A stretch of DNA of 64,000 bases from Candidatus Sumerlaeota bacterium. Its GTDB lineage: Bacteria > Sumerlaeota > Sumerlaeia > SLMS01 > JAHLLQ01. This document shows positions 36,545 to 49,106 of this stretch, one piece after another (positions within the stretch are counted from its first letter, which is position 1; each line of letters opens with the position of its first letter). Under the pieces are notes generated by a model that saw nothing but the letters and a program-made list of their open reading frames with translations, did not search any database and was not told the DNA's origin. The translations under genes were made by a program, and so were the position numbers. The stretch covers positions 3,571 through 67,570 of the forward strand of contig JASGMJ010000020.1 in the NCBI GenBank assembly GCA_030156535.1, written 5' to 3'.

Positions 36545-36775
36545 GGGTGCTTGGTTCCTTCTCGAATCTTTGATCTGGCTGGATTTAGAGATAATGCTGT
36601 CCCTGTTTCAGCCAAACGGAGTGGGGATTTAGACCATCCCCCCCACCGGGAACAAGCGAAATCCGGTGCCTTGACGCGCTCTTCTCGCTCTCCCGGTGCC
36701 GATGCCGCTGACAAAGGCCGGGCGCCTCCGTGGTGGGAGGCGCCCGGTGGTGGTCGAGGATGATGCCCGCCGGTG

Positions 36776-38860
36776 TTACTGGACGAGCGGGATGATGGTG
36801 ATGTTGCCGAGGTAGAAGTTCACGGCAATGACGCCGTCGACGTTGTCGTTCGAGCCGTCGATGTTGACGTCGAAGTTGTCGGGACGTGTCACGCCGTTGG
36901 GCAGGCCGAGGAAGCTCTTGAACATTTCAAGGCCGTCGGCGAGATCGACGTCGCCGTCGCCGTCCACGTCGCCCAGTTCGGGCTTGGAGTTGGCGTCGTT
37001 GGGGTTGTAGCCGAGCAGAACTTCGTAGAAGTCGGCGTAGCTGTCGCTGTCGGAGTCCTTGGGATTGGCGCCGACCTTGTTGCTGTCGACGAGGTCGGGG
37101 AGCTTGTCGTTGTCGACGTCGGTATCGTCAGCGGTCATCGGGCTCTCGAACTTGAACTCCTGCAAGTCGGTGAAGATGTCGGAGTCGGAGTTCGCCGAGC
37201 TGTCGTTGGGATCAACGGGGACGGGGAGGCCATCGTTGTCGGCGTCGGTCTCACTGACGGAGCCGGTGATGACGTAGCCGGTGGAGCCGGCGTTGTCGAA
37301 GCCGTCGCTGATCTTGCCGTCGAGAATCGCTGCATCGGCCACGCTCATGGTGGAGGGGAGGACGAGGCCGCTGCCGACGTCGAACAGGTTGTCGGCTGCG
37401 TAGATGCTCTTGGTGAAGGGACCAGCGGTGCTGCTGGCGACGTCGGATTCGGTGGTGCCGTTTTCATAGCGTGCCAGCGTGCTGGTGGGCACGGCGGCCG
37501 CGTTATCCAACTCGATGAAGGTGTCCAGGCCGGCGGAGAACTTGTTGGCGAGAGCGCCAGGGCCGCCGAGAGCGACGCGATAGAAGGTGATCGGGCCACC
37601 CGCGCTGTTGTCTGCATCCTCGCCGTTGTGGTTCAGGAAGACGACGCCCTTGACGCCGGAAAAGCCGCCGTCATTCAGCGTGCTGCCAAAGATGGCGGGG
37701 GAATTCTGGGCCTGCGACGCGCTGGCAACGTCGGAGGCGTCCCACTGATACGGCTGGTCGCTCTGGTACGAATTGGCGGACGAGTAGATCTTGTTGTTCA
37801 CCTCGATCAGGACGGTGTCGTCCTCCAGCGCGTTGACCGTGTTGTTGCGCAGCGTGATGTCGCGGGCGTTGGTGATGGCGATGCCCGTGTTGCGCGCGTT
37901 GACGGTGTTGCCATCGACGAAGATGGAGAAGGAGCTGTAGATGTTCTTGATCTGGAGGCCGCGGCGGTGGCGGATCGTGGTGCCGACTTCGCCGGGGGCG
38001 TGGTCGTCGGTCTGCGAGCCGTAGCCAGCCTTCGCCGTGATCGTGTTGTTGATGAACTTGACGACGCCGTTGGCGCCGATGTCGCCGATTTCGGCCTGGG
38101 CGCCGCGGTTACGCTCGTCGCCCCAGCCGAGGAACTGGTTGTTGTCAACCGTCAGCGTGGTCTGGGCGATGAAGCGGGCGATGAACTGGAAGTGCTCGGT
38201 GTGGACGGTGTTGTTGGCGATCGTGCCGCCAACCTGACGCTCGGCCCAGATGCCTGCGTGCGGGAACTCGGCGCCGTCGGCGCCAACAACGTTGCCCGTG
38301 ACGGTGGCGTCGATCGTGGCGTTGTTGTTGCCGAAAAGAACGATGCCGCTGGCCGTGTTGTCCGTCGTGGCCTGCACGAAGGGAACGAGGTTGCCGTGGG
38401 TATAGCCGGCCGGCTTGCCCGAACCGAGATAGTTGATTGTATTGTTCGTGATGGTGACGCTGGTGATCGAGTTGGCCGGGACAGCCGACGCCTGGGAAAC
38501 CACGATGCCCGCCATGTTGTTCGGGGCTTCAACGTTGATGATGAAGCCGTCGATCGTGCAGCCAGTGGACAGGATGCGGACGTTGGCGCAGGTGGAATTC
38601 GTGGCTGCGGTCGCCGGGGTGTCGATCGTGGCGCCGTTGATGCCGTTGATCGTCAGGTCCGCCTTGTTGACGACGACGCGTTCAGCGAGCACATCGCCAT
38701 CGACTTCAATCGTATCGCCGGCCACGGCTGCCGTGATGGCGTCCGTCAGCGTTGCATGGGTTGTCGATTGCGTTGTGTTGGTGATCGTCGCAAAGGCGCT
38801 TGCAGTAAGAAACAGAGCACCGGCTACAGCCGTGCCCCGCAAACGGTAGCAGTTTCGCAT
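36776..38860 (-). CDS. secreted right-handed parallel beta-helix protein (pectate-lyase/NosD-like) with C-terminal Asp-rich calcium-binding repeats and a dockerin-like repeat pair
   Basis: Signal peptide MRNCYRLRGTAVAGALFLTASAFA. Many Asn/Thr/Gly-rich beta-helix rungs (NNTI..., GNxV...). C-terminal DxDxDG-type repeats and two dockerin-like segments (GDVDGDGDVDLADGLEMFKSFLG and DVNIDGSNDNVDGVIAVNFYLG). Confidence 0.7.
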   Translation of the reverse strand: MRNCYRLRGTAVAGALFLTASAFATITNTTQSTTHATLTDAITAAVAGDTIEVDGDVLAERVVVNKADLTINGINGATIDTPATAATNSTCANVRILSTGCTIDGFIINVEAPNNMAGIVVSQASAVPANSITSVTITNNTINYLGSGKPAGYTHGNLVPFVQATTDNTASGIVLFGNNNATIDATVTGNVVGADGAEFPHAGIWAERQVGGTIANNTVHTEHFQFIARFIAQTTLTVDNNQFLGWGDERNRGAQAEIGDIGANGVVKFINNTITAKAGYGSQTDDHAPGEVGTTIRHRRGLQIKNIYSSFSIFVDGNTVNARNTGIAITNARDITLRNNTVNALEDDTVLIEVNNKIYSSANSYQSDQPYQWDASDVASASQAQNSPAIFGSTLNDGGFSGVKGVVFLNHNGEDADNSAGGPITFYRVALGGPGALANKFSAGLDTFIELDNAAAVPTSTLARYENGTTESDVASSTAGPFTKSIYAADNLFDVGSGLVLPSTMSVADAAILDGKISDGFDNAGSTGYVITGSVSETDADNDGLPVPVDPNDSSANSDSDIFTDLQEFKFESPMTADDTDVDNDKLPDLVDSNKVGANPKDSDSDSYADFYEVLLGYNPNDANSKPELGDVDGDGDVDLADGLEMFKSFLGLPNGVTRPDNFDVNIDGSNDNVDGVIAVNFYLGNITIIPLVQ

Positions 38861-39501
38861 TTCGATGGGTCTCCTTGCGTGGATACTGGCCCGGATGAGG
38901 GCGCAGATTCGCCCCCATTGGACAGGGGCTTCTCTCGCGTGAGTCGCTTCTTTCCGTTGTGTACCTGGTCTACAAGCCCGTTCCGCAGGCTGCCACACCA
39001 GCGGACGGGCGCCTACCCTTTGCCAAAGCCGGGGATGCCCTCGTGGGTTGTCCCCGACATGCTACTCAGATACTGCCATATTGTCCCGCCTGGGCAGGAA
39101 TTCCCGCCTTCGGCGGTGTTCTCGCCGGCCGGGGCTATCTACCCCGGGAGCGCTTGCGGATCTCTTGTGGCTTTGGAGGCCTCTTCCGAGTGCCTCCTGC
39201 GTTCTCCCACCTCCCGCTTCCCGGGAGGAAGGTTCCCATAGCTTTGACAGGCGGCATGATATTGCCACCCGGATAACAAGACCCCAAACGGCCGGAAATC
39301 GCCGTTCCACTGCTCTTGCGGGTCTCAACACATGTTGAAACTAGCAAGCTCAGAGATGCGGACAACCGAAATCGAAAGCATGTGGACCATAAAAAAAACA
39401 CGGTCCGGGGTTTTTACTCTCCCTCCTTGCCATGCTCCACAGCCCGCGTTCTTCTTGCCGCAGGCTCATACTGCCTGATTCCCGCGCCGCGAGTTTCCGT
39501 C

Positions 39502-39936
39502 ATGCCCGACCGCATCGCTGTCACTTCAGCCCCCTTGAGCCTGGACGAGGCCGTTCGGGCTCTGGGGCACTTGGCGGAGGGAGACGCGCCCGATGGCCGG
39601 GAGCCGGGCACGGACCCGGAGACCGGTGCACTGGTAACGTTTTCGGGGATCGTCCGGGAAACGGAAGCCGGTCGTGCGATCACGCATTTGGATTACGAGC
39701 ACTATGCCGGGATGGCCGAGCGGGAGCTGGAACGGCTGGTGGCTGCGGCGCGGAAACGCTGGCCGCTGCGCGGGTGCGCCGTCTTCCATCGGACCGGCCC
39801 CGTTGCCGTGGGCGAGGCGTCGGTGATCGTGGCGGTGAGCGCGGGGCATCGGGCCGAGGCCTTCGAGGCCGCGCGCTTTCTGATCGACGAACTCAAGAAG
39901 TCGGTTCCGATCTGGAAGTCGGCTCCGGCGCCGTGA
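39502..39936 (+). CDS. moaE: molybdopterin synthase catalytic subunit
   Basis: 144 aa colinear with MoaE (..LVTFSGIVRE.., HLDYEHYAGMAE.., GEASVIVAVSAGHRAEAFEAARFLIDELKKSVPIWK). Confidence 0.82.
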   Translation: MPDRIAVTSAPLSLDEAVRALGHLAEGDAPDGREPGTDPETGALVTFSGIVRETEAGRAITHLDYEHYAGMAERELERLVAAARKRWPLRGCAVFHRTGPVAVGEASVIVAVSAGHRAEAFEAARFLIDELKKSVPIWKSAPAP

Positions 39937-42175
39937 GGCGTTCGCGTTCGCGGCGAGCCTGCTCGTCGGCGGGATCGCGCTCCATGATCTGCTCCAGCGC
40001 GGCGACGGCGCCTTCGGGGTCGGCGAGCCGCTTCTCGCGCAACCACGCCAGATCGTACAGCAGCGTCGTGTCGGACTCCGGAACGGCCTTGATGCCTTCG
40101 ATGAAAACGGTCTCCGCCGCGTGCCAGTCCCCGCTGTCCAGGGGCACTTCCGCCATCATGCGGTAGAGCCACGGCTCGGTGCCCAGCGCGCCGCGCCGCG
40201 CGGCATCGTAGACGGCACGGGCGGTCTCGTGGTCTTCTTCCTGGCGCGCGAAGTAAAGCACGTCGCGGACAAACCAGACGTCGCTGGCGAAGCGCGGCGC
40301 CCGCTCGCGGACGAGCGTGCGCGACTCTTCGTCGCTGGGAAACTCGCAGTAGAGCGCCCGGACGAAGCCACTGACGCGCGGGCACAACTCGATTGCGTGC
40401 AGCAGGCGCGCGCGGCGCGTTTCCGCGGGGACTTCCGTCGCGGCATCCGGCCGCGCCAGCAGGTGATTCCACACGTCGCCATCCGTCTTCACGCCGCGCC
40501 AGATTTCCGAGTAGGCGTCCTTCTGCGCCCGGCCCAGCACGTGCGCCACGAGTTCGGGATAAACGAAGCCCGGCGCGTCGGGGCCCAGGCCGTTGTGCAT
40601 CTCGAAGGCGAGCACGTACTCGGGGCGATGGACGTCGAGCGCGTAGGCCGCCGCGCGTTCGAGCACGGCGTTGCGGTGCCTGGCGCCCTCGTCCCCGATG
40701 CCAATGCCGCCGAAGCGCACCGCACGCACGCTGGGCGCATCGGCGACCACCTTGTCCGTCAGGCCGTCGACATCGATCAGCGTCAAATGGGGCGCGACCC
40801 ACATCGGCAGCCCCACATCGCTCATAACAATCGTGGCGCCGTCATGCGTGTGGAGCAGCAGGGCCTCGGCAACGTCGAGCAGGGCGGGCTGGAAGGGCTT
40901 GGCGAAGTTCCCCAGCACGTTGCGCGGGGTCAGCCACCCCTCCTGGCGGGCAACCCACTGCGGATTCCAGCCGAAGACGTAGGCCGTCTGAATGCGGAGT
41001 TGCTCGGTTCCGGCGAAGAAGAACGCCACCGCGATCAGCGCCTGTCCCGTCCGCGCCAGCCAGCGATGCGGCGCGGCGCTCGTCCGCACAAGATCGACCG
41101 CCGCCGCCACGCCGATCCCCAGGAACGGCAGGACCGGATGGAAGAACCGGAACCCGGGCATCCAGTCGGCACCGGTGTAGAGCAGATAACCCGTCTGGCA
41201 AACGAGCGGCCCCAGCACGAAGAAGCGCATCCGCGCCGTTCCGAGCAACGCGACGAACAGCCCCGAGCCGAGCAGCAGATTCGTCCAGGCGAGGCTGTTG
41301 AAGCGGCCGCCCGGCGCGCCCGTCCCGCGCGGCCATCCCGCCTGGTTCAGGTAGAACTCGTGCAGGTGCGCCAGCGCGCGCGGCACGTTGGCGGATTCGC
41401 CCGCCACCTTCGCGTAAAACGTGTTCGGCAACCAGTCGTGGAAGTACCACAGGCGCCAGAGCTGATAAGGCACGGCGAGGAGCAGGGCGAGGCCCGCGAG
41501 CTGGAGCACCCGGCGCCGGGAGGCCTCCCCGCGTCCGAGCTGCCACAGCGCCCACGCCGCCAACGGCAGGAAGTGCACGGCGGCGTCGGGGCGCGTCATC
41601 CACGCCAAAACGGCCAGAACCGGGCTGAAAGGGAGGCGGCAGGGCTCGCGCAGTTCCACCGCACTCCTCAGAGCCAGCAGAACGAGGAGCAGTGTCGCCA
41701 GCGGCGTCTCCAGCCCCTGTACCGTCCAAAATCCAAAGTGCGCGTTCACCGCGAGAAACAGCGCGGGCAGGACGTTGAGTGGGTCCTCGGCCGCGCGCAG
41801 TTCTGCCGTCAGCCGCCACGCTGCGGCCAGCGTGCCCAGCCCGCAGGCCAGCCCCGCCAGCTTGACCCACAGCAGAACGTCCCCCCCCAGTGCGTAAACA
41901 ACTGCGGCGAGCAGCATCCATGTGAAGTTGGTGTAGCCCTCCACGGGAAGCATCCCTGGATTAAAGACGAGCCCGTGGCCCTCGACGAGGTTGCGGCTGA
42001 AACGGAACGTGATGAAGGCGTCGTCGATCACCTGCTCCCATGCGTTGGAGGCGACGGCGAGAAAGAGCACGGCGCACGGGAGCAGCAGGGCGGCCTGGAG
42101 CAGCACCTCGGGGCGCCGCCAGAAGGCGCGCTGGTCGTCTCTCCAGTGTAGCAGGAAGGCGCGAGCGTCCATGGC
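39893..42175 (-). CDS. polytopic membrane glycosyltransferase, GT39/GT83 (PMT/ArnT)-like N-terminal region with a C-terminal soluble TPR-like domain
   Basis: ~11 TM helices with DDAFITFRFSRNL near the first loop (PMT/ArnT-like DE-type motif), then a ~300-aa helical domain. Start at MDARAFLL (42175). The 3' end overlaps moaE by ~44 nt, convergently. Confidence 0.6.
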   Translation of the reverse strand, partial: AMDARAFLLHWRDDQRAFWRRPEVLLQAALLLPCAVLFLAVASNAWEQVIDDAFITFRFSRNLVEGHGLVFNPGMLPVEGYTNFTWMLLAAVVYALGGDVLLWVKLAGLACGLGTLAAAWRLTAELRAAEDPLNVLPALFLAVNAHFGFWTVQGLETPLATLLLVLLALRSAVELREPCRLPFSPVLAVLAWMTRPDAAVHFLPLAAWALWQLGRGEASRRRVLQLAGLALLLAVPYQLWRLWYFHDWLPNTFYAKVAGESANVPRALAHLHEFYLNQAGWPRGTGAPGGRFNSLAWTNLLLGSGLFVALLGTARMRFFVLGPLVCQTGYLLYTGADWMPGFRFFHPVLPFLGIGVAAAVDLVRTSAAPHRWLARTGQALIAVAFFFAGTEQLRIQTAYVFGWNPQWVARQEGWLTPRNVLGNFAKPFQPALLDVAEALLLHTHDGATIVMSDVGLPMWVAPHLTLIDVDGLTDKVVADAPSVRAVRFGGIGIGDEGARHRNAVLERAAAYALDVHRPEYVLAFEMHNGLGPDAPGFVYPELVAHVLGRAQKDAYSEIWRGVKTDGDVWNHLLARPDAATEVPAETRRARLLHAIELCPRVSGFVRALYCEFPSDEESRTLVRERAPRFASDVWFVRDVLYFARQEEDHETARAVYDAARRGALGTEPWLYRMMAEVPLDSGDWHAAETVFIEGIKAVPESDTTLLYDLAWLREKRLADPEGAVAALEQIMERDPADEQARRERERLTAPEPTSRSEPTS

Positions 42176-42300
42176 CGTGGAGCGTTGGGGAGCCCGGCGC
42201 GCGCCGCAATGGCAAGAGTGCCGGCGGGGCACGATGATTGTCACGGAATTCGCTTACTAACCCAAAGCCGTTCAATATTCTTTATAAGGGAGAGAGCATC

Positions 42301-43962
42301 ATGGCCGAATCGAAAGCGCAGCGGATTCTGATCGTTGGTGGAGTCGCCGGAGGAGCGTCGTGCGCCGCGCGCCTGCGCCGCATGGATGAGTTCGCCGAAA
42401 TTGTCGTCTTCGAGAAAGGCCCGTATGTTTCCTTCGCCAATTGCGGCCTGCCGTACCACACGAGCGGGGTCATCAAGGAAGAGGCGAGTCTGCTGCTCGC
42501 CACGCCGGAGAAGTTTCGCGCCCAGTTCAACATCGACGTGCGTACTCACTTTGAAGTGACGGGTATCGACCGCGCCGCGAAAACCGTCGAAGTGACCAAC
42601 ACCCAGACGGGCGAGGTAACGACGGAAGCCTACGACAAGCTGGTGCTCTCGCCCGGGGCCGAGCCGATCCGCCCGCCGCTGCCGGGGATCGATCTTCCGG
42701 GCATTTTCACGGTGCGCACCGTGCCCGACGCGCGGGCGATCCGCGAGTGGATCGACACGAAGAAGGTTCGCCGCGCCGTGGTGATCGGCGGCGGATTCAT
42801 TGGCCTCGAAATGGCCGAAAACCTCGCGCATCGCGGGATTGCCTGCACGTTGATCGAACGTCTGCCGCAGGTCATGCCCCCTGCGGACGAGGAAATGGTC
42901 CGGCCGCTGCAGGCGCACCTGCGCGAGAAGGGAATCGACCTGCGTCTGGAAACGTCGGTGACGGGTTTCGAGCAGCGCGCCGACGGTCTGGTGGTGACGA
43001 CGGACAAGGGCGATGTCCCCGCAGCCGGGCTGGCGATTCTCGCCATCGGGGTCAAGCCGCTGACGGATCTGGCCCGCGAGGCGGGACTGGCTCTGAATGC
43101 ACGCGGAGCCATCAAGGTCGATGAGCACATGCGTACCAGCGACCCCGACGTTTACGCGATCGGCGACGCGGTGGAAACGATCAACGTGGTGACGGGCAAG
43201 CCTGGTCTGTTGCCGCTGGCGGGCCCGGCCAATCGCCAGGGGCGTCTGGTGGCGGATCATCTTGCGGGACGGGCCGACGCGCGCTTTCGCGGCGTGCAGG
43301 GTACGTCGGTCGTCGGCGTGTTCGATCTGACGCTGGCGCAGACGGGGCCGAGCGAGCGGCAGCTTCGTGCCGAAGGCGTGGCATGCGAGAAGGCGTACCT
43401 TTTCCCCGGGCACCACGTCGGGTATTACCCCGGTGCGGAACCGATCTATTTCAAGCTGCTCTTTGCGCCGGGTGACGGGCGCGTGCTCGGCGCGCAGGCG
43501 GTCGGCAAGGCGGGAGTGGAGAAGCGCATCGACGTCATTGCGATGGCGATTCAGATGAAGGCCACCGTGTTCGATCTCGAAGAGGCCGAGTTGTGTTATG
43601 CGCCGCAGTATGGCGCGGCCAAGGACCCCGTGAACATGGCAGCGTTCATCGCGGCCAACCATCTGCGGGACGAGTCGCCGATCGTCCATTGGGAGGCGCT
43701 GGAAACGACGGCGTCCCGGCCGGTGCTGCTCGACGTGCGCAACCCGGACGAAATCGCCGGGGGCGTACTGGAAGGCACCGTGGTCATTCCGCTGCCTGAA
43801 CTGCGCGCACGCCTGGGCGAACTTCCGCAGGACCGGCCGCTGTGGGTGATTTGTGGCATCGGCCAGCGCTCGCACTATGCCGTGCGCCTCCTGCGCCAGA
43901 AGGGCTTCGACGCGTACTACCTCAGCGGCGGCTGGAAGATGAAAAACGTGCTGGGCGGATAG
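42301..43962 (+). CDS. CoA-disulfide reductase-type pyridine nucleotide-disulfide oxidoreductase with a C-terminal rhodanese domain
   Basis: FAD motif ILIVGGVAGGASCAARL, redox Cys in SFANCGLPY, NAD motif VVIGGGFIGLEMAE, and a C-terminal rhodanese-like region with a Cys loop (VICGIGQRS). Confidence 0.85.
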   Translation: MAESKAQRILIVGGVAGGASCAARLRRMDEFAEIVVFEKGPYVSFANCGLPYHTSGVIKEEASLLLATPEKFRAQFNIDVRTHFEVTGIDRAAKTVEVTNTQTGEVTTEAYDKLVLSPGAEPIRPPLPGIDLPGIFTVRTVPDARAIREWIDTKKVRRAVVIGGGFIGLEMAENLAHRGIACTLIERLPQVMPPADEEMVRPLQAHLREKGIDLRLETSVTGFEQRADGLVVTTDKGDVPAAGLAILAIGVKPLTDLAREAGLALNARGAIKVDEHMRTSDPDVYAIGDAVETINVVTGKPGLLPLAGPANRQGRLVADHLAGRADARFRGVQGTSVVGVFDLTLAQTGPSERQLRAEGVACEKAYLFPGHHVGYYPGAEPIYFKLLFAPGDGRVLGAQAVGKAGVEKRIDVIAMAIQMKATVFDLEEAELCYAPQYGAAKDPVNMAAFIAANHLRDESPIVHWEALETTASRPVLLDVRNPDEIAGGVLEGTVVIPLPELRARLGELPQDRPLWVICGIGQRSHYAVRLLRQKGFDAYYLSGGWKMKNVLGG

Positions 43963-44036: not shown

Positions 44037-44399
44037 ATGCTGGAGGAGGAACTGACGCGGCGAATCATCAAGTGCTGTATTGATGTGTCCAATGAGTTGG
44101 GCGCTGGGTTTATGGAAGGTGTCTACCACAGCGCCCTTCTCTTCTGTCTGCAGGATGAGGGACTCGTTGTTGAGTCTGAACGGCCGCTCGACGTGTACTT
44201 CAGAGACCGGCTGGTGGGCCGGTTCTTCGCCGACCTGGTTGTGGAGGAAAAGATCATCCTCGAACTCAAGGCCGTGGACACGATTCTGCCGGCACACACG
44301 GCCCAGTTGCTCAATTATCTCAGGGCAACTGAACTGAAGATCGGCCTGCTTGTGAACTTCGGAACCCCAAGGGTTCAATGGAAGCGGCTTGTTTGTTGA
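44037..44399 (+). CDS. GxxExxY-family protein (PD-(D/E)xK nuclease-like fold)
   Basis: 120 aa with ELGAGFMEGVYHSAL (GxxExxY) and the D...ExK-like arrangement (FADLVVEEKIILELKAV). AAAGGAGGG lies 7 nt upstream of the ATG. Confidence 0.68.
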   Translation: MLEEELTRRIIKCCIDVSNELGAGFMEGVYHSALLFCLQDEGLVVESERPLDVYFRDRLVGRFFADLVVEEKIILELKAVDTILPAHTAQLLNYLRATELKIGLLVNFGTPRVQWKRLVC

Positions 44400-46140
44400 A
44401 TCCATCAGTATTCGGATGCCTTGCCCGGCCACGCATCCGTGTCCATCCGTCATTATCCGCTCTTCATCCGTGGTAGCCGGTTGCCGTCGGCGTGCGGCGC
44501 TCGTGCGCGGCGAAGGGGAAAGCATACCACGGATAAGGGAAGGATAAGAACCGATGCACACGGATTGCTGAGGGCCAACCGCCCATCCGTGTTCATCCGT
44601 CGTTATCCGTCGTTCATCCGTGGTAGCCGGTTGCCGTGGGCGTGCAGCACCCGGACGCGGCGAAGGGGAAAGTAGACCACGGATAAGGGAAGGATAGGTC
44701 CCGATGCACACGGATTGCTGAGGCCCACCCGCCCATCCGTGTCCATCCGGCGTTATCCGTCGTTCATCCGTGGGAGCCGGTTGCCGTGGGCGTGCAGCAC
44801 CCGGACGCGGCGAAGGGGAAAGTAGACCACGGATAAGGGAAGGATAGGTCCCGATGCACACGGATTGCTGAGACCCACCCGCCCATCCGTGTCCATCCGT
44901 CATTATCCGCTCTTCATCCGTGGGAGCCGGTTGCCGTGGGCGTGCCGATCCCGGACGCGGCGAAGGGAAGAGCATACCACGGATAAGGGAAGGATAAGTA
45001 CCGCGATGCACACGGATTGCTGGGGTCCAACCGTTCATCCGTGTCCATCCGTCATTATCCGCTGTTCATCCGTGGTAGTCGGTTGCCGTGGGCGTGCGGC
45101 GCTCGTGCGCGGCGAAGGGGAAAGCATACCACGGATAAGGGAAGGATAGGTCCTGATGCACACGGATCCTGGGGCCCAACCGCCCATCCGTGTCCATCCG
45201 CCGTTATCCGCTGTTCATCCGTGGTAGTCGGTTGCCGTGGGCATGCGGCGCCCGGACACGGCGAAGGGAAGAGCATACCACGGATAAGGGAAGGATAAGA
45301 ATCGATGCACACGGATCCTGGGGCCCAACGCGCCCATCCGTGTCCATCCGTCGTTGTCCGTCGTTCATCCGTGGTAGTCGGTTGCCGTCGGCGTGCGGCG
45401 CCCGGACGCGGCGAAGGGGAAGAGCAAACCACGGATAAGGGAAGGATAAGAACCGATGCACACGGATACTGGGGCCCAACCGCCCATCCGTGTTCATCCG
45501 TCGTTATCCCCCGTTCATCCGTGGAAGTCGGTTGCCGTGGGCATGCGGCGCCCCGGACGCGGCGAAGGGAAGAGCATACCACGGATAAGGGAAGGATAGG
45601 TCCTGATGCACACGGATCCTGGGGCCCAACGCGCCCATCCGTGTCCATCCGCCGTTATCCGCTGTTCATCCGTGGTAGTCGGTTGCCGTGGGCATGCGGC
45701 GCCCGGACGCGGCGAAGGGAAGAGCATACCACGGATAAGGGAAGGATAAGAACCGATGCACACGGATACTGGGGCCCAACATGCCCATCCGTGTCCATCC
45801 GACGTTATCCGTCGTTCATCCGTGGTAGTCGGTTGCCGTGGGCGTGCAGCACCCGGACGCGGCGAAAGGGAAAAGCATACCACGGATAAGGGAAGGATAC
45901 GTCCGGATACACACGGATATTGAGGTCCAACCGCCCATCCGTGTTCATCCGCCGTTATCCGCCGTTCATCCGTGGTAGTCGGTTGCCGTGGGCGTACAGC
46001 GCTCGGACGAGCCGAAGGGGAAAGCATACCACGGATAAGGGAAGGATAGGTCCGGATGCACACGGATTGCTGGGGTCCAACCGTTCATCCGTGTCCATCC
46101 AACGTGATCCGTTGTTCATCCCTGGTAGTCGGTTGCCGTG
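44400..46140. repeat. tandem array of ~11.6 copies of a ~150-bp unit (periods 149-152 bp, ~85-95% identity), each unit an imperfect ~40-bp inverted repeat flanking a ~55-nt GC-rich loop
   Basis: Unit starts (CATCCGTG...) fall at 44434, 44585, 44734, 44884, 45036, 45185, 45335, 45485, 45636, 45786, 45936 and 46086 (the last truncated). The left arm carries 3-4 copies of ATCCGT. The right arm carries CACGGATAAGGGAAGGATA..CACGGAT, which is its reverse complement. The core ACCACGGATAAGGGAAGGATA is invariant in all units. Frame-shifting indels between units argue against coding. Confidence 0.9.
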
Positions 46141-46252
46141 AGGCACCGAGCCACCGGCCAGGCGTTGGCCCGCTCCTTGCCCGACCTGACGTTCCTGTTG
46201 TCGGCAGGCCGTGGTGCACCGACACTGGTGGCCAAGGAGCACGCTCACCCGC

Positions 46253-48370
46253 ATGACCCATCCGGCACGCGAAAACAGGTTCCTCAACTCCGTGGAAATG
46301 CGCGAGCGCCGCACCGTGCTCCGCTCCATGCCCTATTCCGTGCAGCTTGAGGTCACCACCAAGTGCAATCTGGCGTGCATCATGTGCGCCCGCGACAAGT
46401 ACCACGGCCGCGGCGAAGACCTGGCAGACGACATTCTCGACCCCGTCCTCGACCAAATCCTCCCCACTGCCCAGGACATCATCGTCTCCTCGTTCGGCGA
46501 GCCACTGCTCTACCCACGCTTTCGCGACATCCTGCTCAGGATCGAACCGGACTCCGGGCTCCAGCTCGGCTTCTTCACGAACCTGCTGCTGCTCACCGAG
46601 GAGATGGCCGAGGAACTCGTCAAACGCGGCGCCGCCTACGTGAACGCCTCGATCGATGGCGCGAGCAAGGAGACCTACGAGCGCATCCGCGCCGGAGGAA
46701 AGTGGGAGACGCTGCTCGAAAAAATCGAGCTGCTCAATGCCGTCAAGCGCCGCCACAATTCCTCCACGCCGCACCTGAACCTGTGCGTCGTCGGTTCGAC
46801 GCTCAACATCGACGAGACGGCCCTGTTCGTCGAGTTCGCCCGCGCGCACGGTTTCGACTCGGTGAAGTACAACCCCAACCTGTACGTCGACGACGAGGAG
46901 ATGGACTACCTCTCGCTCGTTCACGAGCAGGAGAAAACCGTCCGCCAGTTCCGCGTGGGCTACCAGCGCGCGCTCGAACTCGACCTGCACACCAACTACC
47001 ACCAGAAGCCCTACCGCGTGGCCTCCGCGCCCGGACCGATTCCACGCCAGGCGTCGCACTGGACAATTTTCATCAATCGCCTCAAGCGTCTCTATCGTAC
47101 GCGGCTCGGATGGCGGCTGGAGAACAACTGGAACCAGTCCGGTGGCATCCCCCGCCACTTCGTGACGCTGGCGCTGCGCAAGGCCGGCAACCTCACGCTC
47201 AACGCGATTCCCGTCTACGGCTGGAAGCGCCGCGTCGAGCACCCCATCCCGCACGTCATTCCCAACGACGCGCCGCCCCGTTCCTGCGGCAACGCCTGGA
47301 CGCATGTGCACGTCAAGTCCGACGGCCTGGTCTACCCGTGCTGCTTCTCCGATGAAGTGATGGGCGACTTGCGCAAGCAGTCGTTCGCGGAAATCTGGAA
47401 CGGCGAGAAGTACCAGGATTTGCGCCGCTCGCTCACGTCCGGCAACTACTGGGCAAGCTGCCGCAAGGCGAGCTGCAACTGGGTGGAGGGCGGGAAGTCC
47501 AGCGAGTACGGCTGCCGGATCGAGCTGACCGGCGCGGTCGAGTCATTCGATGGAAGCGCGGGCGCGGAGATTCCCGTGCGCATTGCGAACACCGGGCGGT
47601 TTCGCTGGCGTCCGCCCGAGCACAAGGGCGTCACGCATCGCAACTACGTGGCGCTGGCGTACCGCCTGTTCAACGCGCGCAACGAACTGATCGACGAGGG
47701 TGGGCACGTTCCGATTCCGCGCGCCGTCAAGCCGGGCGATTCCATTGAGATGACGCTCGCCGTGAAGCCCGTTCGTTTCGGCGGACCCGTGCGGCTGAAG
47801 ATCGACATGGTTCACGAAGGCATCACCTGGTTCGGCGAACGCGGAAACAATGCGCGCGACGTGGAACTCAACGTGGTGAACGTTCCCTTTGCCGCCTACG
47901 TGGGCGTGACGAACAAGGCGCTGGTGAAGCAACTGCTGGCCGGGCCGCTGATTCCCGGCGAGCGTTTCGAGCTGCCGCTGAAAGTGCGCAACGTGGGGAC
48001 GGAGACGTTGGGCGCGCTGCCGGAGACGGATTTCGTTTCCTGTCACTGGCGCGACGCGACGGGCGAAATCGTCGAGTGGGAAGGGCTGAGGGCCACGCTG
48101 AACACGCCGTTGGAGCCCGGCGGGGAATGCGCCGTCGCACTCACCGTCGAAGTCCCGCGCGGCATCGAACCCGGCACCTGCCAACTGGAGATCGACCTCG
48201 TGCGCGAGGATCAGGAATGGCTGAGCCTGGCGTGGGGGCGGCCGTTGCTGGCGTGGCGCGTGGAAGTCGAGGAGCGCGCAGCCGATGAAGAAAAACGCGC
48301 TCCCATGCAGCCTGCCGCCGAGGCGTTTGGCCAGTGCGCCGCCAACACCGGCAGCAAGGGCATCTGGTAG
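46253..48370 (+). CDS. radical SAM/SPASM-domain protein fused to two C-terminal beta-sandwich (Ig/CARDB-like) domains
   Basis: CxxxCxxC (TKCNLACIMC) ~20-35 residues from the start, and SPASM-type Cys clusters (CGNAWTHVHVKSDGLVYPCCF, C..C..C). The last ~280 aa are two ~110-aa repeats with a beta-sandwich-like pattern. The start may instead be the ATG at 46298. Confidence 0.78.
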   Translation: MTHPARENRFLNSVEMRERRTVLRSMPYSVQLEVTTKCNLACIMCARDKYHGRGEDLADDILDPVLDQILPTAQDIIVSSFGEPLLYPRFRDILLRIEPDSGLQLGFFTNLLLLTEEMAEELVKRGAAYVNASIDGASKETYERIRAGGKWETLLEKIELLNAVKRRHNSSTPHLNLCVVGSTLNIDETALFVEFARAHGFDSVKYNPNLYVDDEEMDYLSLVHEQEKTVRQFRVGYQRALELDLHTNYHQKPYRVASAPGPIPRQASHWTIFINRLKRLYRTRLGWRLENNWNQSGGIPRHFVTLALRKAGNLTLNAIPVYGWKRRVEHPIPHVIPNDAPPRSCGNAWTHVHVKSDGLVYPCCFSDEVMGDLRKQSFAEIWNGEKYQDLRRSLTSGNYWASCRKASCNWVEGGKSSEYGCRIELTGAVESFDGSAGAEIPVRIANTGRFRWRPPEHKGVTHRNYVALAYRLFNARNELIDEGGHVPIPRAVKPGDSIEMTLAVKPVRFGGPVRLKIDMVHEGITWFGERGNNARDVELNVVNVPFAAYVGVTNKALVKQLLAGPLIPGERFELPLKVRNVGTETLGALPETDFVSCHWRDATGEIVEWEGLRATLNTPLEPGGECAVALTVEVPRGIEPGTCQLEIDLVREDQEWLSLAWGRPLLAWRVEVEERAADEEKRAPMQPAAEAFGQCAANTGSKGIW

Positions 48371-48371
48371 A

Positions 48372-49106
48372 TTAGGCTGCGGCCGTCACCATGCGGACGA
48401 AGGCGTCTTCGAGATCTTCGCCGTGGCGCTCGCGCAGGCCGTCGAGCGTTCCCTCGTAGAACAGCCGTCCCTGATGAATGATGCCGACCGTGTCGCACAG
48501 GCGTTCGACGTCGGGCATGATGTGCGTGGAGAAGAGGATCGTCTTGCCGGCGTCGCGCTGGGTGCGAATGAAGGTGACGATGGTTCGGCTGGAGAGGACG
48601 TCGAGCCCGGCAGTGGGTTCGTCGAGAATGAGCACGGGGGGATCGTGCACGACGGTGCGCGCGATGTTCACGCGCTGCTTCATGCCGGTGGAGAGCTTGT
48701 CGCAGGGGCGGTCGAGAAACGCGCCGAGATCAAAGAGCACGGCGAGATCGGCGATGCGCGTCTCCAGCGGTTCCTTCTCCATGCCGTTCAGACGGCCGAA
48801 ATAGCGTAGCACCTCGCGCGCCGTCAGGCGGCCGTACAATCCCGTGTTGGCGGAAAGAAAACCGATGCGCGTACGGACGCCCGCGGGGTTTGCGGCCACG
48901 TCGATGCCATCGACCAGTGCCGTTCCCGAAGTGGGGCGCAACGCCGTGGAGATCAGGCGCAACGTCGTCGTCTTGCCCGCACCGTTCGGCCCCAACAGCC
49001 CGAAGACCTTGCCGGGCTGGCAGGTGAATGAGACCTCGGAAACGGCGTTGATCGCGCCGCGACGCCGGTCGCGGAAGGATTTGGTGAGCAAACGTGCTTC
49101 GATCAT
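48372..49106 (-). CDS. ABC transporter ATP-binding protein (no adjacent permease gene)
   Basis: Walker A GPNGAGKTT, Q-loop, signature LSTGMKQR, Walker B ILDEPTAGLD, H-loop. Confidence 0.88.
   Translation of the reverse strand: MIEARLLTKSFRDRRRGAINAVSEVSFTCQPGKVFGLLGPNGAGKTTTLRLISTALRPTSGTALVDGIDVAANPAGVRTRIGFLSANTGLYGRLTAREVLRYFGRLNGMEKEPLETRIADLAVLFDLGAFLDRPCDKLSTGMKQRVNIARTVVHDPPVLILDEPTAGLDVLSSRTIVTFIRTQRDAGKTILFSTHIMPDVERLCDTVGIIHQGRLFYEGTLDGLRERHGEDLEDAFVRMVTAAA

Follow-up and report, generated by a model that had tools for sequence, protein, structure and literature searches.

What does a radical S-adenosylmethionine (SAM) enzyme act on when two β-sandwich domains are fused to its C-terminus, a tandem repeat array lies directly upstream of its gene and no precursor peptide is encoded beside it? 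This question is raised by the gene at positions 46253-48370 of a 64,000-nucleotide (nt) stretch of a Candidatus Sumerlaeota contig (JASGMJ010000020.1), which is called the window here and to which all positions refer unless another locus is named. It is very likely that the gene encodes a real, stand-alone twitch-type radical SAM enzyme which is unrelated to the array. The protein of 705 amino acids (aa) belongs to an uncharacterised family, and its twitch-type radical SAM core with built-in NBR1/FW-type immunoglobulin-like (Ig) modules and a tethered conserved peptide is a new combination. This C-terminal peptide, which had escaped the first-pass annotation of the window, is the only precursor-like element. 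The gene and the parts of its product are arranged as follows.

46253-48370, + strand: whole gene of the 705-aa protein with radical SAM core, twitch-like domain, two NBR1-Ig modules and tail (open reading frame (ORF), Pfam, homologues, AlphaFold)
46234-46239, + strand: Shine-Dalgarno-like AAGGAG, 13 nt 5' of the ATG (read from the sequence)
46349-46834, + strand: radical SAM core, aa 33-194 (Pfam PF04055, 68 bits, cutoff 29.5)
47057-47206, + strand: two long basic helices inserted between the core and the auxiliary domain, aa 269-318 (DSSP on the AlphaFold model)
47285-47512, + strand: auxiliary Fe-S domain, twitch-like, aa 345-420 (Pfam SPASM, TIGR04085, BtrN match, invariant cysteines)
47513-47887, + strand: β-sandwich 1, NBR1/FW-type Ig, aa 421-545 (motif D-x-V-H-E-x-x-T-W-F-G-E-R-G)
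47888-48268, + strand: β-sandwich 2, the same module repeated, aa 546-672 (LSYHW...DLVRE..W type)
48269-48319, + strand: variable linker, aa 673-689 (column identity 20-60% in 25 orthologues; partly placed by the models)
48320-48367, + strand: conserved tail EAFGQCAANTGSKGIW, aa 690-705 (family consensus E-P-x-G-Q-C-V-x-N-T-G-N-K-G-I-W)

The ATG at 46253 agrees with the N-termini of the orthologues (MTHPAR...) in the family alignment, and the product is 100% identical to a protein from a Candidatus Sumerlaeota metagenome-assembled genome (MAG), P0001, which is annotated as hypothetical in NCBI. About 35 full-length homologues share 37-69% identity with it. Since invariant residues carry differing synonymous codons between the genomes, the ORF is a gene under selection at the protein level and not a GC-rich shadow ORF. 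The AlphaFold model built from the family alignment (mean predicted local distance difference test score (pLDDT) 85.7, predicted template modelling score 0.79) consists of the radical SAM barrel, the two long helices, the auxiliary domain and two strand-rich domains which correspond to the β-sandwiches. The first-pass description, in which a radical SAM core is followed by an auxiliary domain of the SPASM family and by two Ig-like repeats, was thus confirmed by Pfam, by the AlphaFold model and by the identity between the repeats. The fusion had also been called unusual, and this was borne out by an exhaustive profile search, in which only four of 1.84 billion 50%-identity representatives (P0017, P0028, P0035 and P0098) aligned end to end, so that the full architecture is rare. 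The family is small, with named Sumerlaeota MAGs among its members, and literature searches for a radical SAM family in Sumerlaeota returned no paper on it.

In the core, the CX3CX2C motif formed by C38, C42 and C45 (nt 46364-46387) is invariant in the 34 sequences of the family alignment and, together with the hidden Markov model score above threshold, places the protein in PF04055. The SAM-binding-type motif SSFGEP (aa 79-84) is also invariant, and SAM is predicted to be cleaved at the CX3CX2C cluster. The inserted helices span aa 269-295 and 300-318. The fold of the catalytic part was matched best by SkfB (Foldseek E 2e-10) and SuiB (9e-10) and further by viperin, DesII, BlsE, anSME and MoaA; the MoaA models of NCBIfam match the core weakly (E about 1e-13). 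No curated NCBIfam subfamily came near its cutoff. The best of them, W_rSAM_matur, reached 116 bits versus a cutoff of 380, and another of the best whole-protein similarities, rSAM_Geo_metal, reached 104 bits, also far below its cutoff. Two highly conserved loops have a low pLDDT in both AlphaFold models that were made, one behind the cluster motif (aa 46-51, K-Y-H-G-x-G) and the other at aa 212-216 (N-x-Y-V-D-D-E-x-M). These loops may perhaps become ordered only upon binding of a cofactor or substrate and are candidate substrate contacts.

The SPASM label given to the auxiliary domain in the first pass stands only in part. Pfam SPASM (PF13186) recognizes aa 345-408 with 56.9 bits versus a cutoff of 21.5, whereas TIGR04085 remains below its cutoff (24.0 versus 27 bits) and covers only profile positions 1-65 of 93. 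The complete SPASM motif has seven cysteines (CX9-15GX4C - gap - CX2CX5CX3C - gap - C), which bind two auxiliary [4Fe-4S] clusters. Its first half is present here as C345-x12-G358-x4-C363, with C364 adjoining, but in place of CX2CX5CX3C there is merely C403-x4-C408, and these five (C345, C363, C364, C403 and C408) are the only invariant auxiliary cysteines in the 34 sequences. When the family profile was compared with the solved structures of the PDB, the best sequence match was the twitch enzyme BtrN (E 2.6e-9), followed by PqqE and the sugar decarboxylase BlsE. In the pairwise alignment with BtrN, C363 falls on the PC motif and C408 on the CxxC of that enzyme. Similarly, the best NCBIfam match of the domain is the twitch part of N_Twi_rSAM (46.6 bits). 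The domain is therefore read as a shortened SPASM-like domain of the twitch type, with cysteine ligands for a single auxiliary cluster, because only five cysteines are invariant, BtrN is the best sequence match among solved structures and TIGR04085 stays below its cutoff. The enzyme is accordingly placed among the twitch-like members of the SPASM/twitch group; it probably has a single auxiliary cluster, a number predicted from the cysteines.

BtrN, a 2-deoxy-scyllo-inosamine dehydrogenase and the founding twitch-domain enzyme, is thus the closest reference for this domain. The cysteine spacing is C...PC(C)...C-x4-C in the window protein and C...PC...C-x2-C in BtrN. Both proteins have too few cysteines for two auxiliary clusters, and both are without a RiPP (ribosomally made, post-translationally modified peptide) recognition element (RRE). 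BtrN differs in being only about 250 aa long, without Ig domains and without a tail, and the similarity of the cores is weak.

The C-terminal extension of about 250 aa forms two β-sandwiches in the AlphaFold model, which are repeats of one another (26% identity, E 3e-5). They are homologous to the tandem PF16158/CARDB repeats of a secreted protein, and their Foldseek matches are C-terminal barrels of transglutaminases and RbmA. The window protein itself gives no PF16158 match at E <= 0.1, and its sandwiches reach no Pfam threshold; direct PF16158 matches were obtained for 7 of 16 family members (best E 2.3e-9), and 37 of the 40 proteins retrieved with the sandwich region of the family profile carry the PF16158 annotation. 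In other proteins, the Ig module occurs as a fusion with many SAM methyltransferases, with the glycosyltransferases GT2/GT4 and with Wzy_C, and in a wider search also with subtilases, PD40 and cell-wall amidases. The context of its fusions to methyltransferases and glycosyltransferases was uninformative. According to the profile search, only a few small clades join it to a radical SAM core. In two relatives of about 625 aa (P0036 and P0037), one NBR1-Ig sandwich lies between the core and the twitch domain and a second one after the twitch domain. As this group carries a sandwich at another position, the Ig module travels with the radical SAM subfamily. Another relative, P0040 (704 aa), consists of two complete radical SAM/twitch units in tandem.

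The tail motif is present in all 25 aligned closest homologues, behind a linker which varies in both length and sequence, and it forms the C-terminus of every family member except two. In the 25 orthologues, G693, C695, K702, G703 and W705 are conserved at 100% and E690, Q694 and G700 at 96%. The codons used at these positions differ synonymously between genomes, which shows that selection acts on the tail peptide. In one of the two exceptions, P0025 (836 aa; its JGI contig measures 2565 nt), the motif (IGHCVPHTGNKGIW) lies inside the protein, with a third sandwich/Ig domain behind it; in the other, P0026, nine residues follow it. A free carboxylate is therefore not essential. The linker has a pLDDT below 50 at aa 677-687 in the first AlphaFold model. 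In the second, for which a clean alignment of the tail clade and a consensus-like tail were used, the approximately 20 residues before the tail end reach about 72 at best. Cys178 in the barrel is invariant and specific to the tail-bearing clade, where it co-occurs with the tail cysteine; being a single-event correlation, this co-occurrence is weak evidence of a connection between the two.

In the genomes, metagenomes and protein clusters searched, the tail is confined to this family. A degenerate DNA pattern of the motif with its stop codon was run against one genome per GTDB species (596 gigabases) and against JGI metagenomes, and apart from the family itself (Sumerlaeota/Sumerlaeia MAGs) it found only chance matches, namely Oribacterium ORFs of 134-155 codons, measured back to the preceding in-frame stop, together with others of 11-38 codons. 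A search of a set of 5.8 billion protein clusters with the tail profile added only two ORFs, P0245 (44 aa) and P0246 (35 aa). They consist of linker and tail only, P0245 being identical to the end of P0016, and are probably frameshift fragments; they may also represent a split enzyme/peptide system. No tail-like motif was found in the loci of the sister clades or in their β-helix neighbours. Two other identities of the tail were considered and rejected: a glycyl-radical-type motif (RVxG[FWY]), since the pattern is absent on inspection, and an exosortase-type sorting signal, since there is neither a transmembrane helix nor a basic cluster.

The surroundings of the gene were compared with the independent loci of nine orthologues of the tail-bearing clade and five of the tail-less sister clades. 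TRF found no comparable tandem array in any of them, and in an all-against-all blastp comparison of the flanking ORFs the radical SAM gene was the only gene common to the window and these loci, except for the ATP-binding cassette (ABC) ATPase in L002. The neighbourhoods of the tail-bearing genes differ from one another (L002, L003, L005, L007, L015, L016, L018 and L019). The blastp-short search of eight tail-clade loci, covering up to 800 nt upstream and 500 nt downstream, detected no conserved small ORF, synteny between close genomes aside. Judged by the test set for it in advance, the functional link between the gene and the array that was suspected in the first pass is thus refuted. The absence of a conventional precursor gene nearby was confirmed, the array lying upstream and a lone ABC ATPase downstream. 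The expectation of a RiPP maturase did not hold: an RRE of the PqqD-like type gave no Pfam or NCBIfam match and has no room in the protein, because the core begins at residue ~28 and only ~27 residues precede it, and the all-against-all comparison revealed no conserved protease or transporter. To judge by its gene content, the locus is not a RiPP cassette.

All associations that may point to a substrate come from neighbourhoods of the tail-less sister clades, at 37-41% identity. In L010 (7420-13001), the locus of P0035, an operon-like run contains a GmhA-like sedoheptulose-7-phosphate isomerase gene (188 bits versus a cutoff of 209) which overlaps the start of the radical SAM-Ig gene by 4 nt, and directly after the latter come a sugar/carbohydrate-type solute-binding protein and two permeases. 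A partial protein annotated as Candidatus Sumerlaeia matches the last 158 aa of P0035 with a few differences, which makes it probable that the tail-less P0035 clade is found in Sumerlaeia too. In three of the five tail-less loci, NosD/β-helix proteins with signal peptides adjoin the radical SAM-Ig gene, in the following regions.

L008, 10509-14663: β-helix neighbour region
L022, 10064-11479: β-helix neighbour region
L033, 2537-4750: β-helix neighbour region

The β-helix genes of L033 and L008 are on the same strand, 25-145 nt downstream. L008 also holds an ABC-2 exporter and a Methyltransf_24 gene, and L033 also YfhO and another radical SAM gene. Four more β-helix genes are present in L008; the three that were read end to end are paralogues ending in GGHTY or GGHLY. 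No motif common to the β-helix proteins was found. Among the relatives of the catalytic core, fusions occur with TPR repeats, a class-III aminotransferase, the glycosyltransferases GT1/GT4, a sulfotransferase and Methyltransf_24, and the profile and fold matches include the sugar-modifying enzymes BtrN, BlsE and DesII. The fusion partners suggest carbohydrate, though not exclusively.

On the basis of the sugar and β-helix neighbours in the sister clades, the glycosyltransferase fusions and the BtrN, BlsE and DesII matches, we tentatively favour, at somewhat less than an even chance, a carbohydrate-type substrate in combination with a gating tail. The cluster of the core would cleave SAM, and the resulting 5'-deoxyadenosyl radical would take a hydrogen from a substrate bound in between the twitch domain and the barrel. 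An electron would be accepted or returned by the one auxiliary cluster, which would amount to redox chemistry like that of BtrN, DesII or BlsE. The Ig modules may hold a polymeric or glyco-conjugated substrate for which the genes lie in another part of the genome. For the clade with a tail, the proposal is that the tethered peptide folds back, so as to close the active site or control it, and serves as a gate or pseudo-substrate specific to this clade. A gate is suggested by a tail that is conserved at the protein level and whose last residues are nevertheless unplaced in the AlphaFold models.

The precedent for such a gate is the GTP 3',8-cyclase MoaA, whose tail is disordered in crystals, is essential and has been proposed to insert into the active site and seal it (PMC9026282). 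MoaA, too, is a radical SAM enzyme of the twitch type, and its C-terminal tail is conserved. In contrast to the MoaA tail, which follows the twitch domain directly, the one described here is separated from it by 250 aa of Ig domains, carries an invariant cysteine and is present in one clade only. The analogy, if it holds, would be one of function only.

Several findings weigh against a carbohydrate-type substrate or against the gate. SkfB and SuiB, which head the Foldseek matches of the core, are peptide maturases, and no carbohydrate gene is conserved beside the tail-bearing orthologues. PF16158 modules occur in proteases, amidases and many surface proteins as well, and the sole characterised FW domains bind proteins (PMC9233695). 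The MoaA tail ends in a conserved Gly-Gly and the tail here in K-G-I-W. The last tail residues are unplaced in both AlphaFold models, with a pLDDT of 26-30. Moreover, the tail is absent from the sister clades, which have the same catalytic motifs, and it is therefore not a generally required gate.

The main rival to this reading, somewhat less probable than it, takes the tail itself to be the substrate. The enzyme would then carry its own core peptide, in a borosin-like manner, and would modify it either in cis or, within an oligomer, in trans, for instance by forming a thioether between Cys695 and a nearby Asn or Thr or by cross-linking Lys702 to Trp705. What results would be either a cross-link or cofactor derived from the protein itself or a peptide that can be released. 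Cys, Lys and Trp, all three present in the tail, are the residues cross-linked by the SkfB, NxxcB/PapB, StrB/SuiB and WgkB families. The closest core folds are SkfB and SuiB, that is, twitch/SPASM peptide cross-linking maturases, and the chemistry of SkfB and SuiB/StrB, a Cys thioether and a Lys-Trp C-C bond, would suit the tail residues. A peptide of 16-25 aa that is conserved behind a variable linker, confined to the family in the genome, metagenome and protein-set searches and unplaced at its end in both models would be in keeping with a self-substrate, and the invariant Cys178 would also fit. SkfB and SuiB/StrB have an N-terminal RRE or an equivalent, a neighbouring precursor and genes for processing and export, none of which is found here; a tethered substrate would make both the RRE and the precursor gene unnecessary. 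To our knowledge, borosins are the only established RiPP architecture which resembles the arrangement of the tail. In borosin precursor-enzymes of the OphMA type, the enzyme that modifies the core peptide also carries it, behind a linker, as its C-terminus (PMC7878506), and the linker and conserved terminal peptide seen here are compatible with this layout. Borosins are SAM methyltransferases and not radical SAM enzymes.

Against a self-modified tail stand the sister clades, which share the core, the auxiliary domain and the Ig modules but have neither the tail nor a similar peptide nearby. A conserved protease or exporter is missing from the neighbourhood, and each 705-aa protein would turn over only once. 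The internal motif of P0025 and the nine-residue extension of P0026 rule out chemistry that depends on a free C-terminus, the failure of AlphaFold to place the terminal residues counts against this reading too, and the literature searches revealed no natural fusion of a radical SAM enzyme with its substrate. We therefore consider it rather doubtful that the tail-bearing enzymes represent the first natural case of a radical SAM enzyme joined to its own substrate. Comparably doubtful is the specific proposal that G-Q-C-V-x-N-T-G-N-K-G-I-W is cross-linked through a Cys thioether, a Lys-Trp bond or both, and no better prospects are given to the products that would follow, a cross-link or redox cofactor formed from the protein or a releasable RiPP that needs neither a separate precursor gene nor an RRE or a cassette.

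It is quite improbable that the enzyme is a trans-acting protein maturase of the anSME or QhpD kind, with targets encoded elsewhere, such as secreted β-helix proteins, and with Ig modules that bind protein. The signal-peptide-bearing β-helix/NosD proteins downstream of or adjacent to the gene in three of the five tail-less loci could be such targets, and the protein-binding FW domains mentioned above are consistent with this role. The best NCBIfam similarities, W_rSAM_matur and rSAM_Geo_metal, are predicted metalloenzyme maturases, and anSME is among the fold matches. However, no β-helix gene lies near any tail-bearing orthologue, the β-helix proteins share no motif, all NCBIfam scores are far under the cutoffs, and one auxiliary cluster is likely here as opposed to the two of anSME and QhpD. 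Finally, the idea of a RiPP maturase whose precursors are small ORFs of the upstream array, which is attractive in that each unit of about 150 bp contains ATG-started ORFs of 40-47 codons close to the gene, is effectively refuted, because the spacing of 149-152 bp shifts the ORF frame between copies, the recurring ATG-started ORFs of this size are on the strand opposite to the gene, the related loci of both the tail-bearing and the tail-less clades have no comparable array, no small ORF is conserved near the tail-clade genes, and the protein itself has no RRE.

The mining of genomes for peptides modified by radical SAM enzymes relies on an adjacent precursor gene and an RRE, and a family with its own candidate peptide at the C-terminus would escape it. 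If the peptide is modified, the self-modifying principle of the borosins would be extended to radical chemistry. If the tail is a gate, it would be a second example, distinct in sequence, of the poorly understood MoaA-type control of radical initiation by a tail. Either way, a twitch-type core is joined here to NBR1/FW-type Ig modules, a kind of module common among the glycan enzymes and surface proteins of bacteria, and the suspected functional link between array and gene is removed.

The array itself extends over 44434-46140 with a period of about 150 bp and 11.4 copies (TRF), and its end lies 112 nt 5' of the start codon. The unit is a long imperfect hairpin of ATCCGT/ACGGAT-type submotifs. 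The RNA fold of the unit, at -61.5 kcal/mol, is not significant compared with shuffled sequences (z -1.64), and the array gave no Rfam match. Neither in the rest of the window nor in the related loci do its units recur, and its core motifs are likewise limited to the array. The small ORFs within it lie in several frames and on both strands, and they change frame between copies since the unit length varies. The contig of a Logan assembly of the same organism begins 198 nt 5' of the radical SAM gene, within the last array unit.

Downstream, a 244-aa ABC-2/DrrA-type ATPase gene (48372-49106, - strand) converges on the radical SAM gene, with one base between the two stop codons. It lies 25 nt 3' of a glycoside hydrolase family 2 (GH2) gene on the other strand and has no permease partner. 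A connection with this ATPase, which the first-pass annotation had pointed out, is not supported either: the ATPase is kept only in the closest relative, L002, with 69% identity, and it is convergent and without a permease.

Upstream of the array, a gene of the GxxExxY/PDDEXK_3 nuclease superfamily (44037-44399, + strand; TIGR04256 138.6 bits, PF13366 135 bits) ends 35 nt before the first unit. It is preceded by a gene at 42238-43962 (+ strand) for a CoA-disulfide reductase-like flavoprotein (TIGR03385 482 bits, below the cutoff of 579) with a C-terminal rhodanese domain (Pfam Rhodanese, aa 494-567). Three ORFs of 676-822 aa, at 36773-39241 (+), 39893-42244 (-) and 40121-42151 (+), have no Pfam match at E <= 0.001, and two of them, which overlap on opposite strands at 39.9-42.2 kb, compete as the gene. 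An ORF with a MoaE domain is located at 39316-39936.

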